From Klebsiella phage NU-KP11: a stretch of 64,000 bases of DNA. The first letter of the stretch is position 1, and each line of letters opens with the position of its first letter. The notes below the pieces were generated by a model. It searched no databases. It was not told the DNA's origin and saw nothing but the letters and a program-made list of their open reading frames with translations. Where the stretch lies: sequence record OR644643.1. One strand, 5' to 3'. Positions 31,590 to 41,676 of the stretch are shown piece by piece. Both the position numbers and the translations under genes were made by a program.

Positions 31590-32054
31590 ATGAATAAGTT
31601 TTTCTTTGATATGGATGGTGTATTGTTCGACTGGGAAGGTTCATTTGTGCCAATGTATGGCGAACCCTCGATGATGACAGAAGATGAGTTGAAAAAGTGC
31701 AAAGCAAAAATTGCCAAAACTGATTTCTACGAAAATCTGGAACCAATCAAAGAAGGATTTGAATTATTCCATCATTTAAGAACACTTGGTGATGTAGCAA
31801 TACTAACCAGTGTCGGTAAATTCAATTCTGACGGTGTTGCCGAACAGAAACGTAAAGCATTACAAAAAGTATTGGGTTACGTTCCAGAATTCCACTACGT
31901 TAAAAGTAGCCATGAAAAAGCAGCATTCGCTGGTAAAGGAATCCTGTTTGACGATCGGGCAAAAGCGGTGTTGCCTTTCAGAAAAGCAGGAGGTAAAGCA
32001 ATCCTCTTTGTTGGTGATAAGAAAACAGCGCTTGATGAATTAAAAAGATTGTAA
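31590..32054 (+). CDS. HAD-superfamily phosphatase, 5-prime(3-prime)-deoxyribonucleotidase-like
   Basis: Motif I FFFDMDGVLFDWEG. Shares TDFY(E/K)NL motif with the convergent HAD gene. Confidence 0.6.
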   Translation: MNKFFFDMDGVLFDWEGSFVPMYGEPSMMTEDELKKCKAKIAKTDFYENLEPIKEGFELFHHLRTLGDVAILTSVGKFNSDGVAEQKRKALQKVLGYVPEFHYVKSSHEKAAFAGKGILFDDRAKAVLPFRKAGGKAILFVGDKKTALDELKRL

Positions 32055-32059
32055 AAGAA

Positions 32060-32086
32060 AGGGAACCATTGCGGTTCCCTTTTTTG
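32060..32086. terminator. bidirectional rho-independent terminator between convergent HAD genes
   Basis: AGGGAACC-ATTGC-GGTTCCCT flanked by an A-run upstream and TTTTTTG downstream. Confidence 0.65.
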
Positions 32087-32605
32087 TTATTGATTAGCCT
32101 TTGCAAGCGCTTCTGTGACTAGCTGAATATTTTCTTCCAGGGTTTCCGCAAGGAAAATACCAGGAACTTTATTAGCTAGATGAGAATTGTTCCAGATTTC
32201 AAGATGTTTCTGGTTGCGGGAAATCAGAACACCACGATAGGCATGTTCTGCGAACTGTTCCGGATAGTCAATGCGACTAAAATCGAGACGAGAGACCCCC
32301 AGTTCAGCGCAAATCTTATCTGTATAGTTCAGTTTTTCTTTCATAACCCAAAGAGGGCTGACCGCTTCCGCGCGAAGCAGCAAAGTAGCAGGATCACCGA
32401 TTCGGCGTTGGAAACTCCATTGAAGGAGGTCAATCCCAGCCTGAATACGGGGAAGGTTTTTATAAAAATCAGTACGCACCAAAGAAGCCGCCATTTCGTC
32501 ATATCGTTCTTTTGGCGTTCCTTCCGGACGTACACCGAACTTATCATAAAAAGCCTGAGAAAATTCTGCTAAAGTGTCGTCGAAATCAAAAAGAAGTGTA
32601 TTCAT
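32087..32605 (-). CDS. HAD-superfamily phosphatase (paralog of 31590-32054)
   Basis: Motif I LLFDFDDTLAEF. Shared RTDFYKNLPRI motif. Confidence 0.55.
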   Translation of the reverse strand: MNTLLFDFDDTLAEFSQAFYDKFGVRPEGTPKERYDEMAASLVRTDFYKNLPRIQAGIDLLQWSFQRRIGDPATLLLRAEAVSPLWVMKEKLNYTDKICAELGVSRLDFSRIDYPEQFAEHAYRGVLISRNQKHLEIWNNSHLANKVPGIFLAETLEENIQLVTEALAKANQ

Positions 32606-32618
32606 TGTTTGCCTTATT

Positions 32619-32894
32619 TTATTGGTCAGGATCTGGTTCAGGAGCAGGAGTCAATGACAACAGACTAACCAGTTTACCATTACGAGATTCGATTACATGA
32701 ATATCACCATAATCTTCAAACGCCTCTTTCAGAGTATCAAACTCTAATTTATATTTTTCTTCCGCATAATCGCGCCAGTCGTCGCCTTTCTCAAAAGCAT
32801 CAACGATAATATCGTATAGCCAGTATGGAAGATATGTAAAACTGGTATTTCTCCACGGAATAGGATGAACCGTAGTCCATTTTTCAGTTGCCAT
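32619..32894 (-). CDS. free-standing paralog of the Hoc capsid-binding domain (mini-Hoc, 91 aa)
   Basis: WTTVHPIPWRNTSFTYLPYWLYDII...GDDWRDY...ESRNGKLV parallels the Hoc C-terminal domain WTVHPIPWRDTSFTPIGYWVLDEI...GKDWKTDY...DSRNGYIH. No Ig domains. Confidence 0.6.
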   Translation of the reverse strand: MATEKWTTVHPIPWRNTSFTYLPYWLYDIIVDAFEKGDDWRDYAEEKYKLEFDTLKEAFEDYGDIHVIESRNGKLVSLLSLTPAPEPDPDQ

Positions 32895-32904
32895 TTAAAG
32901 CCTC

Positions 32905-33966
32905 TTAGATTTCACTCATTTTATGAATATAGCCGTTTCGTGAATCCTGGATCTCACATTCACCGTTTTCCATGAACGCTTTCAGGATCGTTTGTACTTC
33001 CTCACTATACTTATAATCAGCATAATCAGTTTTCCAATCTTTACCCTGTGCTTTCTGATACAGAATTTCATCAAGTACCCAATAACCGATCGGGGTAAAG
33101 CTGGTATCACGCCACGGAATCGGGTGAACCGTCCATTTGGAAACGAGATCATCAGAATTTTGATTAACAGTTACGACACATACAGTTGATGTGATGGTAT
33201 CGGAATTCGCATCAGTGACTACAACTTTATACGAACCCGCATCATCCAGAGCCGCACTTGCCACTGTAAGAGTATCCGCATCGTCTCCAACCGGAGAATC
33301 ATCCTTAGTCCATGCATAAGAATAAGGAGAAGTACCACCCAATACAGTTACACTAAGGATCAATGCAGAATCCTGTGTTACGGAAGCGGTCGGGCTTAGA
33401 TTTTTATCAAACGCAAGAGCAGGCGTAACGCTAACAGCACAAGCACTAGAAGTTTTTCTGTTACCCAGTGAATCCGTCACTTCTACCGTATATGAACCTG
33501 CATCACCACTTGCAGCCGCGCTAATTGTTAAGGTTGCAGAATCACCACTAACAACAGTAGAACCACGTTTCCATACATAGGTATACGGGGATTTACCGCC
33601 AGTTACCGCAACAGTCAGGGTAAGTTCTTTACCAGTAACAACAGATTTTGTTGCAGGTAAATCAGTACCAAATGCGATTACCGGATAAGTGATCACGGTG
33701 ATTGTATCAGACGTGGTTTCTGTTGCTGATTCTTCATCAGCACCGTGTTTTAAGATCAGGGTATAATCACCAGCAGTTGTACCGTCAACCGTAGTTGTGT
33801 AAGTATCGGCGGTTGCGTCTGGAATATCTACACCATCTTTTTGCCAACGATAGGCCAGAAACACATCACCAGGATCTAGTTCAGTAGTTTCAACCTCTAA
33901 GGTCAAAGTTTCGCCAATCAAAAGTTCGTTTTTGTTGGCGCTAATTGTTACAGAAGGAATTGCCAT
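32905..33966 (-). CDS. hoc: highly immunogenic outer capsid protein Hoc (three Ig-like domains plus C-terminal capsid-binding domain)
   Basis: C-terminal domain matches T4 Hoc (HPLPHR/HPIPWR, GKDWKTD, SRNGYI). Three tandem Ig-like repeats with SPY(T/S)Y.W(K/T) and GSY.V.VTD motifs. Confidence 0.85.
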   Translation of the reverse strand: MAIPSVTISANKNELLIGETLTLEVETTELDPGDVFLAYRWQKDGVDIPDATADTYTTTVDGTTAGDYTLILKHGADEESATETTSDTITVITYPVIAFGTDLPATKSVVTGKELTLTVAVTGGKSPYTYVWKRGSTVVSGDSATLTISAAASGDAGSYTVEVTDSLGNRKTSSACAVSVTPALAFDKNLSPTASVTQDSALILSVTVLGGTSPYSYAWTKDDSPVGDDADTLTVASAALDDAGSYKVVVTDANSDTITSTVCVVTVNQNSDDLVSKWTVHPIPWRDTSFTPIGYWVLDEILYQKAQGKDWKTDYADYKYSEEVQTILKAFMENGECEIQDSRNGYIHKMSEI

Positions 33967-33994
33967 AAATTTAACCTCTTATGTTTATTGGTAT

Positions 33995-34564
33995 TTATAG
34001 CCGGAGTATTTTACCGTTACACGTTCCGCATTTGTCGTAGTCGTTAACACGTCCATACCCATTACATTCAGGACAAAACGGAGTAGTAACCCCGAAAACG
34101 TTACGGATCGCATAAGTGGATTGTTCTTCGGTCAACCCAACAAACCCATCAGTTTTAATAAAATGTTCTTTTTGTGAAGAAAGCATATCGGTGTCATCAT
34201 CAAGAATGAGATAGTTTTTACATCCGAAAGTATCGATCCATGCCTTGATTTCATCACCACGCATTCCAGTACTATGAGGGAAGTTAGTGCAAGTTTTACC
34301 AATGATCCGATACAATCCCCACGGATAAAATATTTCACGTAGATTATGGGTACTGTTGCCGATTCTCCACGTAGAGGAAATGACGATATCACAATTAGCG
34401 TGATTCACTATCCGGCGTAAGTGTCGTGCGCATTCGATGTCCATATGTTCACCAAATTTCATGCACCGCATATTATTTAGAACGCCATCGATATCAAGAA
34501 AAATAACGTTACCAATCTCGTTACCATCGCTCAAATCTTTTAAACATTCGTGATTTAAGTTCAT
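33995..34564 (-). CDS. HAD-like phosphatase with C-terminal Cys4 zinc ribbon
   Basis: Motif I VIFLDIDGVLNN. C-terminal CPECNGYG...CGTCNG. Confidence 0.5.
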   Translation of the reverse strand: MNLNHECLKDLSDGNEIGNVIFLDIDGVLNNMRCMKFGEHMDIECARHLRRIVNHANCDIVISSTWRIGNSTHNLREIFYPWGLYRIIGKTCTNFPHSTGMRGDEIKAWIDTFGCKNYLILDDDTDMLSSQKEHFIKTDGFVGLTEEQSTYAIRNVFGVTTPFCPECNGYGRVNDYDKCGTCNGKILRL

Positions 34565-35007: not shown

Positions 35008-35685
35008 TTATTTTTTGAACGTGTCGAACTGGCTATTTCTGGTTTCGCGTACAGTAACCATCCCATCACGGTGCATGTACCATGCCAGCGACTTGAGGGT
35101 TTGACGCGCTGAATAATGAGGGCAACCATCAGGATGCTTGTACCAATCCGGATTTTGTTTCATCCAATCATAGATCCAATACGGACACGTATAAAAGCCA
35201 GTATTCGAAACAGAGCGGCCCATCATGATGATAGACGGGGTAAACCCTTCCATCCATGCCAGTTCATCAGAAACCGTCTCAGAATCGCTTACAGGAGCTT
35301 GTAGAGCGTCGGGAACAATTTCAATCTGGTCGGCAATTTCCGGAGCAACATCAGGAACGGATGGTTCACCTTCGTATGTAACAATTTCCGGATCAGGGGA
35401 GTCGATCAACAGTTCTGGTTTTTCTGCTGGTACGGCAGCTTCCAGATCAGCAAGCATATTTTCGAATGACTTCTGACGGTTCAGTTTGACATCAAACGTT
35501 TCTTGCGCGTAGGTAGCAAGCTGTAATTTGGCTTCTTTTTGTTCTAAGGCTTTGAAACCTTCAACCTTTTCGTAATCAATACTCATTGTAGTTCTCCAAT
35601 GTTTATCATTATTTAGCCTATAAATATTCATATAAACCGTATATAGGATACACATAGTGGATATCGAAGTCAAATTCCTTAACAC
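35008..35685 (-). CDS. hypothetical protein (225 aa). Size matches T4 Inh (226 aa) but separated from hoc by three genes; not verified.
   Basis: ORF track. The Inh assignment is a guess from size only. Confidence 0.45.
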   Translation of the reverse strand: MLRNLTSISTMCILYTVYMNIYRLNNDKHWRTTMSIDYEKVEGFKALEQKEAKLQLATYAQETFDVKLNRQKSFENMLADLEAAVPAEKPELLIDSPDPEIVTYEGEPSVPDVAPEIADQIEIVPDALQAPVSDSETVSDELAWMEGFTPSIIMMGRSVSNTGFYTCPYWIYDWMKQNPDWYKHPDGCPHYSARQTLKSLAWYMHRDGMVTVRETRNSQFDTFKK

Positions 35686-40107: not shown

Positions 40108-41676
40108 TTACAGCCCTTTAACGTATACTTTACGGAAGTATGCGTTTTTACCGAACATTTCTTTGGTAATCATACCAGAAGTGATACGGTCGGACGGAGC
40201 CTGAGAGCGAGAGTTCGCAAACGGGTTGATACCTACACCGTAACGAGTTTTGAAGCCCATTACTGGCTGGAAGTTCTTCGGATCAGAACCACGCAGCGGG
40301 GTCAGCGCAACATACGGAGCGTAGTAGATACCAGCATCCATTTCGTTATCGCCTTTGTAACCCACGGTGAAGTAATCACCACGTGCATACTGGTCGATGT
40401 ATACTTTATACACGCCACCCAGAACACCAGCGAATACTGCTTTAGTGGTGTCAACGTTCAGAGTCTTCTGGAGACCTTGACCTGCCGGAGTGATACCGCT
40501 ATCGATACGAGCCAGAGCGGAAACCACGTTACGGGAAGCGATGATGAAGTTACCAGCACCACGACCAGTTTGACGTGCGATTTCGTTTGCTTCTTTGTCG
40601 ATCTGAATCAGCAGAGCTTTGTAGCTTTCACCAGCCCAACGAGCGCCACGAACATCAATCGGATCCTGGAAGTCAAACGCACCAGCTTTAGAGCCAACGG
40701 TCTGAGTGAAACCAGTTTTACCAACCTGTGCGGTATAGTTGATCATGTCAACGATTTCGCGGTTGATTTCCAGCATGATTTCGGTTGCCAGAATAGCAGA
40801 CAGTTCGGCGTCAGCGTCCATACCGTGAACAGCGCGGAGATCCTGAGCCAGTTCTACAGAGTACTGTGCTTTCAGTTGGCGGCTACGTGCTTCGATAACC
40901 TGCTTATCGATACGGAAGCCCATTTCGTTCCACGGGTTGCCAGTAGAACCGTTGAACTGTTCTTGCAGTTCTGCTACACTGGTAGCCATACCGTAAGAAA
41001 TTTCAGCCAGAGTACCTTTTTCCTGTTCGGCGATAACAGCAGCATCCAGAGCATCGTCGGTAGAACCAGTTACAGTAACCGGAGCGCCAGAAACGTTCTG
41101 GAGGAACACACGACCAGTTTCAACGAAATCGTGGAACACAATAGCGCCGTCAGCAATAGCCTGAGCAGAAGTCAGTTTGGTAAAGCCGTTGCTCGGAGCC
41201 GCGCCCTGACCGGAGTACATGCTATCCGGGGAGAACATCGGATGGAATGCTTCTTTAGCACCGGAAGCCAGCGGATCTTTACCGTACACTGCGCGGAGAG
41301 CGAACACCTGACCAGTAGGGCCAGTCATCGGCTGAACACCGCAGATATCGAATGCGATCAGGTTAGGAATCGCACGGCGAACCATACCGATTACAGCAGG
41401 GCCGATGTTGGTGATAGCACCGCTTGAGTTACCAGAAGCGATTTTGGTTGCGTCGTAACCGTGGTCACCAGCAATTTCAGCTTCCGCCAGGAAACCACCG
41501 AAGGATTCAACGATTTTCTCGTCGCGGTAAACCGGATCAACTTCTGCGTCTTTTTCCTGTGCTTCCATAATGGCAGCAATCAGTTGTTTTTTGGATTTGG
41601 TAGCGATATCCGGTAAGCCTTCCTGAGACTCCAGAAGATCGTTCCATTTTTCCATCAATTCGTTTTTCTTAGACAT
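40108..41676 (-). CDS. 23: major capsid protein gp23
   Basis: Near-colinear identity with T4 gp23 (AIPNLIAFDICGVQPM, QVFALRAVYGKDP, NPWNEMGFRIDKQVIEA, GIYYAPYVALTPLRGSDPKNFQPVMGFKTRYG). Confidence 0.97.
   Translation of the reverse strand: MSKKNELMEKWNDLLESQEGLPDIATKSKKQLIAAIMEAQEKDAEVDPVYRDEKIVESFGGFLAEAEIAGDHGYDATKIASGNSSGAITNIGPAVIGMVRRAIPNLIAFDICGVQPMTGPTGQVFALRAVYGKDPLASGAKEAFHPMFSPDSMYSGQGAAPSNGFTKLTSAQAIADGAIVFHDFVETGRVFLQNVSGAPVTVTGSTDDALDAAVIAEQEKGTLAEISYGMATSVAELQEQFNGSTGNPWNEMGFRIDKQVIEARSRQLKAQYSVELAQDLRAVHGMDADAELSAILATEIMLEINREIVDMINYTAQVGKTGFTQTVGSKAGAFDFQDPIDVRGARWAGESYKALLIQIDKEANEIARQTGRGAGNFIIASRNVVSALARIDSGITPAGQGLQKTLNVDTTKAVFAGVLGGVYKVYIDQYARGDYFTVGYKGDNEMDAGIYYAPYVALTPLRGSDPKNFQPVMGFKTRYGVGINPFANSRSQAPSDRITSGMITKEMFGKNAYFRKVYVKGL

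Follow-up and report, generated by a model that had tools for sequence, protein, structure and literature searches.

In bacteriophage T4, the outer capsid protein Hoc is anchored to the head by its C-terminal domain: one such domain sits on each expanded gp23* hexamer, off-centre in a groove where it touches all six subunits, and two Hoc chains per hexamer are sterically impossible (PMC10385173). Binding of T4 Hoc to the capsid is nanomolar. It is also thought to be irreversible, C-terminal fusions to T4 Hoc lower the affinity 500-fold, and Hoc-family genes are dispensable in the laboratory, Hoc being non-essential in T4 (PMC3012670). The reversed arrangement, with the anchor at the N-terminus, is known for the 511-residue PG7 protein, and there are phages with two Hoc-like proteins (Fokine et al. 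2023, PMC10385173). The same paper makes no mention of proteins that consist of the anchor only. Here we describe such a protein, mini-Hoc, in a 64,000-nucleotide (nt) stretch of Klebsiella phage NU-KP11 (sequence record OR644643.1), which we call the window and to which coordinates refer unless a locus number (L) precedes them. Its gene, mini-hoc, comprises 91 codons plus the stop (32619..32894, minus strand) and lies directly after the gene for full-length Hoc (hoc, 32905..33966, minus strand). It is a discrete, intact gene for the Hoc-type capsid-binding domain alone. Judged from sequence and predicted structure, its product is most likely a minimal decoration protein that would compete with Hoc for hexamer centres.

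A Hoc anchor domain without Ig-like domains

The gene had been noticed in a sequence-only reading, which described a discrete open reading frame (ORF) directly after hoc that encodes the Hoc anchor without immunoglobulin (Ig)-like domains, ends in a Pro/Glu/Asp-rich tail (TPAPEPDPDQ) and is a counterpart of the T4 domain that takes one site at the centre of each gp23* hexamer. This description was borne out. The ORF list contains the gene with the sequence quoted in that reading and an ATG start, and the T4 site is as described in PMC10385173. BLASTP aligns mini-Hoc residues 4-73 with residues 276-345 of the adjacent Hoc (35 of 71 identities, 49%; E=2e-20), and a phmmer search of the PDB sequences gave a single real match, residues 293-365 of T4 Hoc (E=4.9e-10). 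Among the PHROGs, mini-Hoc matches the Hoc-like head decoration families phrog_14282 (2.5e-62), phrog_11091 (1.2e-40) and phrog_1149 (8.9e-23), the last of these at the C-terminus of the profile, and none of the Inh families. The Pfam search gave no match and no Ig domain; Pfam has no model for the anchor domain.

An AlphaFold2 (AF2) model built on an alignment of 17 diverse anchors consists of one alpha/beta domain (residues 10-81) followed by a disordered tail. Its mean predicted local distance difference test score (pLDDT) is 83.8, with values of 86-91 over residues 11-80 and 46 in the tail. The model has strands at residues 10-12, 17-22, 65-69 and 75-77 and helices at residues 24-35 and 49-62. 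The only significant Foldseek match was the T4 Hoc C-domain on the gp23* capsomer (8t1x_X; E=3e-6, template modelling score 0.67, root-mean-square deviation 2.0 Å), and all other matches had E above 1. From the model, the Foldseek match and the contact residues described below, the anchor domain (four beta strands and a helical bundle) covers residues 1-82 (32649..32894, minus strand), and the tail PAPEPDPDQ covers residues 83-91 (32619..32648 including the stop, minus strand). The protein has a computed net charge of -10 and an isoelectric point of 4.4.

The T4 Hoc C-domain (residues 281-376; PDB 8t1x, 8t9r, 5vf3) shares with mini-Hoc the four-stranded sheet and helical bundle, 36% sequence identity, the contact residues, the docking segment on gp23, an acidic character and a place in the inh-hoc region downstream of a late-promoter motif. 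Unlike T4 Hoc, mini-Hoc has no Ig-like domains and so no 180-Å fibre; the anchor makes up the whole protein and is N-terminal, and a full-length Hoc is encoded in the same genome.

The gene is kept in related phages, a point that the sequence-only reading had proposed to check. Over the mini-hoc region, Klebsiella phage pR7_1 matches the window at 99.6% identity, and many KP15-like Slopekvirus phages do so at ~99%. The 91-residue gene occurs at 95% or more amino acid identity in 110 phage records from several continents, and over all 110 its DNA is at least 98.8% identical. Scans of IMG/VR and of metagenomes yielded 10 and 6 loci, respectively. Diverged shortened alleles are few in these collections, and tests of selection within the clade therefore have low power. 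Existing labels include 'Hoc large outer capsid protein' (KP15_196, identical in sequence), 'hoc_2' and 'Hoc-like head decoration'. The Hoc-like label is thus already in the databases, and mini-Hoc represents a known family in a domain-minimal form.

Because a word-indexed protein search with the 91-residue query returned only 3 clusters, an exhaustive search of representatives was used instead. This profile search with the anchor gave 147 clusters at 50% identity. Most of them carry the anchor C-terminally in proteins of 166-1500 residues, a minority carry it N-terminally, and several are short. A separate pattern was seen in proteins P0083, P0127, P0128, P0146 and P0148 (783-1501 residues), in which the anchor profile is matched repeatedly (6-7 times), each time only over positions 10-29 or 10-41; the repeat resembles the HPIPWR..TSF strand-loop-strand.

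A shortened member of a reverse-topology lineage

The sequence-only reading had called mini-Hoc a paralog of the neighbouring Hoc domain. The two domains are indeed homologous, whereas the origin that this implied for mini-Hoc did not stand. In a pairwise matrix its anchor shares 54-82% identity with N-terminal anchors of other phages, 44% with the anchor of its own Hoc (over the whole anchor; the 49% above refers to the 71 BLAST-aligned residues) and 36% with that of T4. It also carries the signatures of the clade with N-terminal anchors (N-anchors): WTTVHPIPWR, LPYW, DWRDY without a Thr insertion, and FIESRNG. In profile alignments it covers positions 1-90 of 246, 1-84 of 167 and 1-71 of 502 (the PHROGs 14282/11091/9703 class). 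These matches at profile N-termini indicate that the nearest relatives bear the anchor N-terminally and continue past it.

Syntenic genes are found in Klebsiella phage Lemur_ER36 (164 residues, following a classical Hoc of 469 residues), Cronobacter phage SemperBestia (172 residues) and Yersinia phage JC221 (166 residues), the last two without a classical hoc at the locus. Erwinia phage COW86c encodes a 508-residue N-anchor protein among different neighbouring genes. All four proteins have the common start MAT..WTTVHPIPWR. After a common 'LTP', the orthologues of 164-172 residues run on into a Big_2-like Ig domain (Pfam scores of 21.8 bits for Lemur_ER36 and 30.6 bits for the metagenomic relative P0012), and mini-Hoc is for this reason read as a C-terminally shortened derivative. 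Other N-anchor relatives carry two Big_2-like domains (one IMG/VR relative), Ig_3 (another cluster) or a GDSL hydrolase (COW86c).

DNA alignment with Lemur_ER36, SemperBestia and JC221 shows that ~215 nt encoding Big_2 are missing from the window, and that the start and ribosome-binding region of the downstream deoxyribonucleotidase gene are kept beside the gap. In the KP15-like Slopekvirus lineage this looks like a ~215-nt deletion with one end within a few nucleotides of the ancestral stop. The beginning of the tail PAPEPDPDQ aligns with the TPA[DE]P linker of the Big_2-bearing orthologues, by which alignment most of the Pro/Glu/Asp tail derives from the former linker between the domains. 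The sequence-only reading had also considered a pseudogenised duplicate with a frameshifted Ig region upstream; no such region is present, and what was lost is instead a downstream display domain. In the annotated regions of KP15, SemperBestia, JC221 and Lemur_ER36 the genomic slot is the same: inh, then hoc where present, the gene in question, and the 5'-3' deoxyribonucleotidase gene. Going by orthology and synteny, mini-Hoc is a C-terminally shortened orthologue of a separate reverse-topology Hoc-like lineage and not a copy of the hoc 3' end.

The described members of this lineage include the 511-residue PG7 protein (PMC10385173), COW86c_7, the RB16, RB43 and Cronobacter proteins labelled 'Hoc large outer capsid protein', and PHROGs 14282, 11091 and 9703. 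They have in common with mini-Hoc the orthologous N-anchor, the start MATEKWTTVHPIPWR, the slot upstream of the deoxyribonucleotidase gene and the TPA-x-P start of the linker. They differ in that one or two Big_2-like domains, an Ig_3 domain or a GDSL esterase follow, whereas mini-Hoc keeps nine linker-derived residues. COW86c_7 itself (L004 3501-5027, annotated as hypothetical) combines its N-terminal Hoc anchor with a C-terminal GDSL/SGNH hydrolase (Lipase_GDSL_2, 4e-18); this domain content would make it an esterase displayed on the capsid, similar to the PG7 protein of Fokine et al. 2023.

The Lemur_ER36 cassette of HAD-like, hoc and N-anchor genes (L005 1483-3995) has diverged from the window with synonymous divergence (dS) of 0.6-1.4, as against 0.03-0.07 in the flanking genes. 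This contrast indicates that the Lemur_ER36 decoration module was swapped by recombination, as a mosaic import, and Lemur_ER36 is for that reason unusable for dating the truncation of mini-Hoc.

Capsid-contact residues and the docking site on gp23

In T4 the residues that contact gp23* are His295, Arg300, Trp310, Asp313 and the loop Glu355-Ser-Arg-Asn-Gly359 (PMC10385173). In the phmmer alignment to T4 Hoc, mini-Hoc keeps the equivalents of all of them: His10, Arg15, Trp25, Asp28 and Glu69-Ser-Arg-Asn-Gly73. Across the 17 diverse anchors, W25, S70 and G73 are invariant and R15, D28, E69 and N72 nearly so. Arg15 has been retained despite a double codon change from AGA to CGT.

The receiving surface is conserved as well. 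The segment of T4 gp23 on which Hoc docks is Gly326-Arg344 (PMC10385173). Its equivalent in the window, G328-R346 (40639..40695, minus strand), lies in the gp23 major capsid protein gene (40108-41676, minus strand; phmmer alignment to T4 gp23, E=1e-241). The two segments, GSKAGAFDFQDPIDVRGAR and GSKAGVFDFQDPIDIRGAR, are identical at 17 of 19 positions, and the equivalents of Asp336, Pro337 and Arg344 are kept in the phmmer alignment.

Selection on the anchor and the tail

Polymorphism was counted in 20 sequences of the shortened (91-residue) clade. In the 82 codons of the mini-Hoc anchor there are 3 synonymous nucleotide changes and 2 replacements (D38E and D61Y), whereas the 9 codons of the tail have no synonymous change and 4 replacements (D88N, D88V, D88E and P89T). 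In the 80 codons of the Hoc anchor there are 10 synonymous changes and no replacement. Per site, replacements amount to 0.010 in the mini-Hoc anchor and 0.20 in the tail, a 20-fold difference (Fisher p=7e-4), at synonymous values of 0.06-0.22. Measured against the pooled synonymous diversity of three adjacent genes, the anchor shows a deficit of replacements (p=7e-6). From these counts, the mini-Hoc anchor is very probably still constrained, less strongly than the Hoc anchor. The tail replacement rate (0.20) is close to the synonymous rate of the Hoc anchor (0.22), and by this comparison the tail drifts at about the neutral rate.

The 91-codon ORF and all contact residues are intact in 20 of the 20 sequences inspected, and the Shine-Dalgarno sequence is kept in the window. 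The gene does not look like a pseudogene: the frame is intact, translation signals are kept and the anchor replacement rate is below neutral, within the low power of the within-clade tests. Over the longer comparison of the window with Lemur_ER36, the ratio of nonsynonymous to synonymous divergence (dN/dS) is 0.17 for the N-anchor (dS 0.77) and 0.038 for the Hoc anchor (dS 1.39), the flanking genes having the low dS given above. The N-anchor ratio of 0.17 in Slopekviruses, where a classical Hoc coexists, compares with 0.02-0.04 in Pseudotevenviruses, where the N-anchor gene is the only Hoc-like gene.

Over the window and loci L016-L018 and L029-L034, tail codon 88 has three replacement alleles (Asp to Asn, Val or Glu); beside it there are P89T and, in a metagenomic variant, an AP insertion. 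This variation reflects either a mutational hot spot or diversifying selection.

Other anchor-only forms and decayed relatives

Morganella phage vB_Mm5 encodes a second kind of anchor-only protein. MM5_035 (L021 3001-3366), annotated 'Hoc-like head decoration', is a 121-residue anchor with a 40-residue acidic Pro/Glu/Asp tail and no Ig domain. It is the sole Hoc-like gene of the phage, directly after inh, and a second sequence 96% identical to it exists. MM5_035 resembles mini-Hoc in being an anchor only, in its disordered acidic Pro/Glu/Asp tail and in its syntenic place. It differs in its classical C-anchor signatures (IGYW, DEI, FRTD and QESRNG), in its 41% identity to the mini-Hoc anchor, in the length of the tail, and in having no second Hoc-like gene and hence no competition partner. 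The classical signatures imply that anchor-only proteins arose independently, at least twice, and the status of MM5_035 as the only Hoc homologue of its phage implies that an anchor-only form can be the resident decoration protein.

Shortened or broken copies also occur. The RB43 orthologue stops at 61 residues in the original record (L014 2501-2686), probably because of an error in sequencing or because strains differ; resequenced RB43 records match the vB_Mm5-type anchor query P0011 over its residues 1-91. In the soil contig Ga0193723_1000068 (L028 1480-1973), a 10-nt linker deletion relative to L027 splits an N-anchor/Big_2 gene into an 85-residue anchor ORF and an 85-residue Big_2 ORF; the gene may be truly split, or the assembly may be wrong. 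One metagenomic copy (P0026) of the 91-residue gene is frameshifted.

Proposed role of mini-Hoc and competing explanations

Since the T4 domain docks once per gp23* hexamer centre, competition for Hoc sites, or their capping, is the natural expectation for a second protein with this domain, and competition between mini-Hoc and Hoc is plausible on the sequence data. We propose that, after capsid expansion, mini-Hoc would use its ESRNG loop and the face of its beta-sheet to dock in the central groove of the gp23* hexamer, the same site as that of the co-encoded 353-residue Hoc. Because a hexamer accepts one anchor and T4 Hoc binds at nanomolar affinity and practically irreversibly, the ~155 sites would be partitioned between Hoc and mini-Hoc by relative synthesis and on-rates. 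The outcome would be a mixed capsid with fewer Ig fibres, in which some hexamers carry a fibre and others are capped by a small acidic plug. Given that C-terminal fusions weaken binding of T4 Hoc, one may speculate by analogy that loss of the C-terminal module could have made mini-Hoc a better binder than its ancestor.

With slightly more confidence than doubt, we read mini-hoc as a real late gene whose product would be a stand-alone Hoc-type anchor, a domain-minimal member of the reverse-topology group that shares or competes for Hoc hexamer sites. We are clearly more doubtful of a stronger version, in which mini-Hoc is a selected 'cap', that is, an encoded stoichiometric regulator of Ig-fibre number, with anchor-only forms having arisen at least twice (once per topology) and the same fold reused in Inh. 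Several observations weigh against a role at Hoc sites. Papers on phiEap-3, KP15/KP27, Rpl1, KlebPhaCol and ValerieMcCarty make no mention of mini-Hoc in Slopekvirus virion proteomics, structures (cryo-EM) or expression. Mini-Hoc is unlike its own Hoc anchor at 4 of the ~16 contact positions defined in T4 (the equivalents of W306, Q354, E355 and Y360); one of the four is Lys74, a position occupied by Tyr in T4 and in the orthologues of Pseudotevenviruses. The N-anchor is under weaker constraint than the Hoc anchor, both in dN/dS against Lemur_ER36 (0.17 vs 0.038) and within the clade, where the ratio of replacements to synonymous changes is 2:3 as against 0:10. The replacement deficit is not significant when set against the three synonymous changes of the gene itself (binomial p=0.064), the shortened clade is shallow, and Hoc-family genes decay repeatedly, as in RB43, the soil contig and the metagenomic copy.

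Much of this would be expected if mini-Hoc were a neutral remnant, which we regard as a serious rival, possible and yet on the whole unlikely. It would have arisen when a second, dispensable decoration gene lost its display domain by deletion, leaving a stub that is still transcribed and may bind capsids, brings no benefit and has not yet decayed. The shallow clade (at least 98.8% nucleotide identity over 110 records), the p value of 0.064 for the gene's own polymorphism, the weaker constraint relative to the Hoc anchor, the near-neutral rate of the tail, the frequent decay in the family (RB43 at 61 residues, the split gene of L028, the frameshift in P0026) and the non-essential nature of Hoc in T4 all agree with it. 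It is harder to reconcile with the 20 of 20 sequences that keep the ORF and every contact residue, with the 20-fold lower replacement rate in the anchor than in the tail and the regional deficit, and with a deletion that left the frame intact to a new stop and kept the Shine-Dalgarno sequence and start of the next gene. A further point against it is the anchor-only protein with an acidic tail in vB_Mm5, which is the sole Hoc homologue there and is backed by a 96%-identical second sequence.

A neofunctionalised anchor, with a target other than the Hoc site (a different capsomer environment, the prohead, or Inh- or gp21-related assembly factors) or a function as soluble decoy or chaperone of Hoc, appears improbable. 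It would account for the four contact positions at which mini-Hoc departs from the co-resident Hoc anchor and for the faster evolution of the N-anchor where a classical Hoc coexists, and the homology to the Inh C-terminus described below shows that the fold is used outside decoration. Set against this, the ESRNG loop and the equivalents Arg15, Asp28, Trp25 and His10 are intact, the gp23 docking segment is conserved, the PHROGs matched are Hoc-like and not Inh, and the orthologous anchor of Pseudotevenviruses belongs to their sole Hoc-like protein, most simply placed at the canonical site. We consider a recent tandem duplication of the 3' end of the adjacent hoc to be very improbable. Mini-hoc adjoins hoc on the same strand and is 49% identical to its anchor, as such a copy would be; the closer match to N-anchors of other genera than to its own Hoc, the clade-specific signatures and the syntenic orthologues in phages without any classical hoc point elsewhere, and upstream, 10 nt from the hoc stop, there is no Ig remnant. 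A duplicate is contradicted by the orthology and synteny data, and we rejected it.

If mini-Hoc does sit at hexamer centres, the capsid surface of KP15-like Klebsiella phages, which are in wide use as therapy candidates, would be mixed. Competition between Hoc and mini-Hoc would determine how densely the capsid bears immunogenic Ig fibres that adhere to mucus or cells, a matter of relevance to immunogenicity, aggregation and pharmacokinetics. Display technology would gain a natural capsid tag of 9 kDa whose C-terminus is free. In evolutionary terms, the anchor behaves as a stable module, and the display domains attached to it come, go and are exchanged (0-2 Big_2, Ig_3 or a GDSL esterase in this lineage, and 1-4 Ig domains in Hoc). 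If mini-Hoc is only a remnant, it is an ordinary case of decay of a dispensable decoration gene.

Expression signals and neighbouring genes

The hoc stop and the mini-hoc start are spaced by 10 nt. A Shine-Dalgarno sequence read from the DNA, AAGAGG (32901..32906, minus strand), lies 6 nt 5' of the mini-hoc ATG and overlaps the hoc stop codon; the same hexamer occurs upstream of hoc. A T4-type late promoter motif, TATAAATA, was found by pattern search and context 26 nt upstream of the hoc ATG (33992..33999, minus strand). The window contains 9 matches to the pattern, where 4.4 are expected; the predicted late expression rests on this motif, the good Shine-Dalgarno sequence of mini-hoc and the lack of a terminator in between. 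The promoter probably drives hoc, mini-hoc and the downstream gene, the 5'-3' deoxyribonucleotidase gene (32087-32605, minus strand; phrog_2643). No terminator was seen in the sequence between hoc and ~32062, the first hairpin following the deoxyribonucleotidase gene. That GC-rich hairpin (32062..32086), with T-runs on both strands, is a likely bidirectional terminator, for which an equivalent site is annotated on both strands in KP15 and KLB15, and it is likely to end the hoc/mini-hoc/deoxyribonucleotidase transcript.

Readthrough fusion of mini-hoc with hoc or with the downstream gene was considered and rejected, the reading frames being different and stops intervening. A 62-residue plus-strand ORF (32512-32700) was likewise rejected as a gene because it is antisense to two conserved genes.

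Full-length Hoc of the window has 353 residues, with three Ig-like domains (Pfam Ig_3, I-set and Ig_2; PHROG 1149) and a C-terminal anchor; by alignment to mini-Hoc, this paralogous domain takes up residues 274-353 (32908..33147, minus strand). The length of Hoc varies in the genus, from 177 residues with one Ig domain (KP15, RCIP0052 and ALF_ER54) through 353 with three (the window and PMBT1) to 469 (Lemur_ER36); beside hoc of the window, the loci with length variants are L001 2957-3490, L005 2081-3490, and L032 and L035, both 723-1256. The Hoc anchor has no replacement within the KP15-like clade and differs from that of Lemur_ER36 at 6 of the last 80 residues.

The anchor has a distant homologue in the C-terminal ~65 residues of Inh (35011-35205, minus strand; the ORF in the window is 35008-35685, minus strand), with an hhalign probability of 95.7% and E=1e-8, so that the window would contain three copies of the anchor fold. 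T4 Inh, a minor head protein and inhibitor of the gp21 prohead protease, shares the pattern F-x-T-x-P-W-W-I-Y-D ... D-W ... R-E-T-R-N-S. Unlike mini-Hoc, it lacks the first strand (VHPIP) and has an N-terminal region of ~130 residues. We found no mention of homology between Inh and Hoc in the accessible literature. The Inh ORF of the window begins with GTG at 35685, and the T4, Cronobacter and Yersinia Inh proteins align from an ATG at 35586 (MSIDYEK...); from this alignment, the annotated Inh proteins of KP15 and Lemur_ER36, with their longer N-termini, probably start too far upstream.

Between inh and hoc lies a gene (33995-34564, minus strand) whose product joins a HAD_SAK_2 domain ('Swiss Army Knife RNA repair' HAD, 2.7e-29) to a zinc-finger motif of the DnaJ type, CxxCxGxG. 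On the other side of mini-hoc, the deoxyribonucleotidase gene converges with a paralogous 5'-3' deoxyribonucleotidase gene (31590-32054, plus strand), also phrog_2643, and the two share the hairpin terminator at ~32062-32086.

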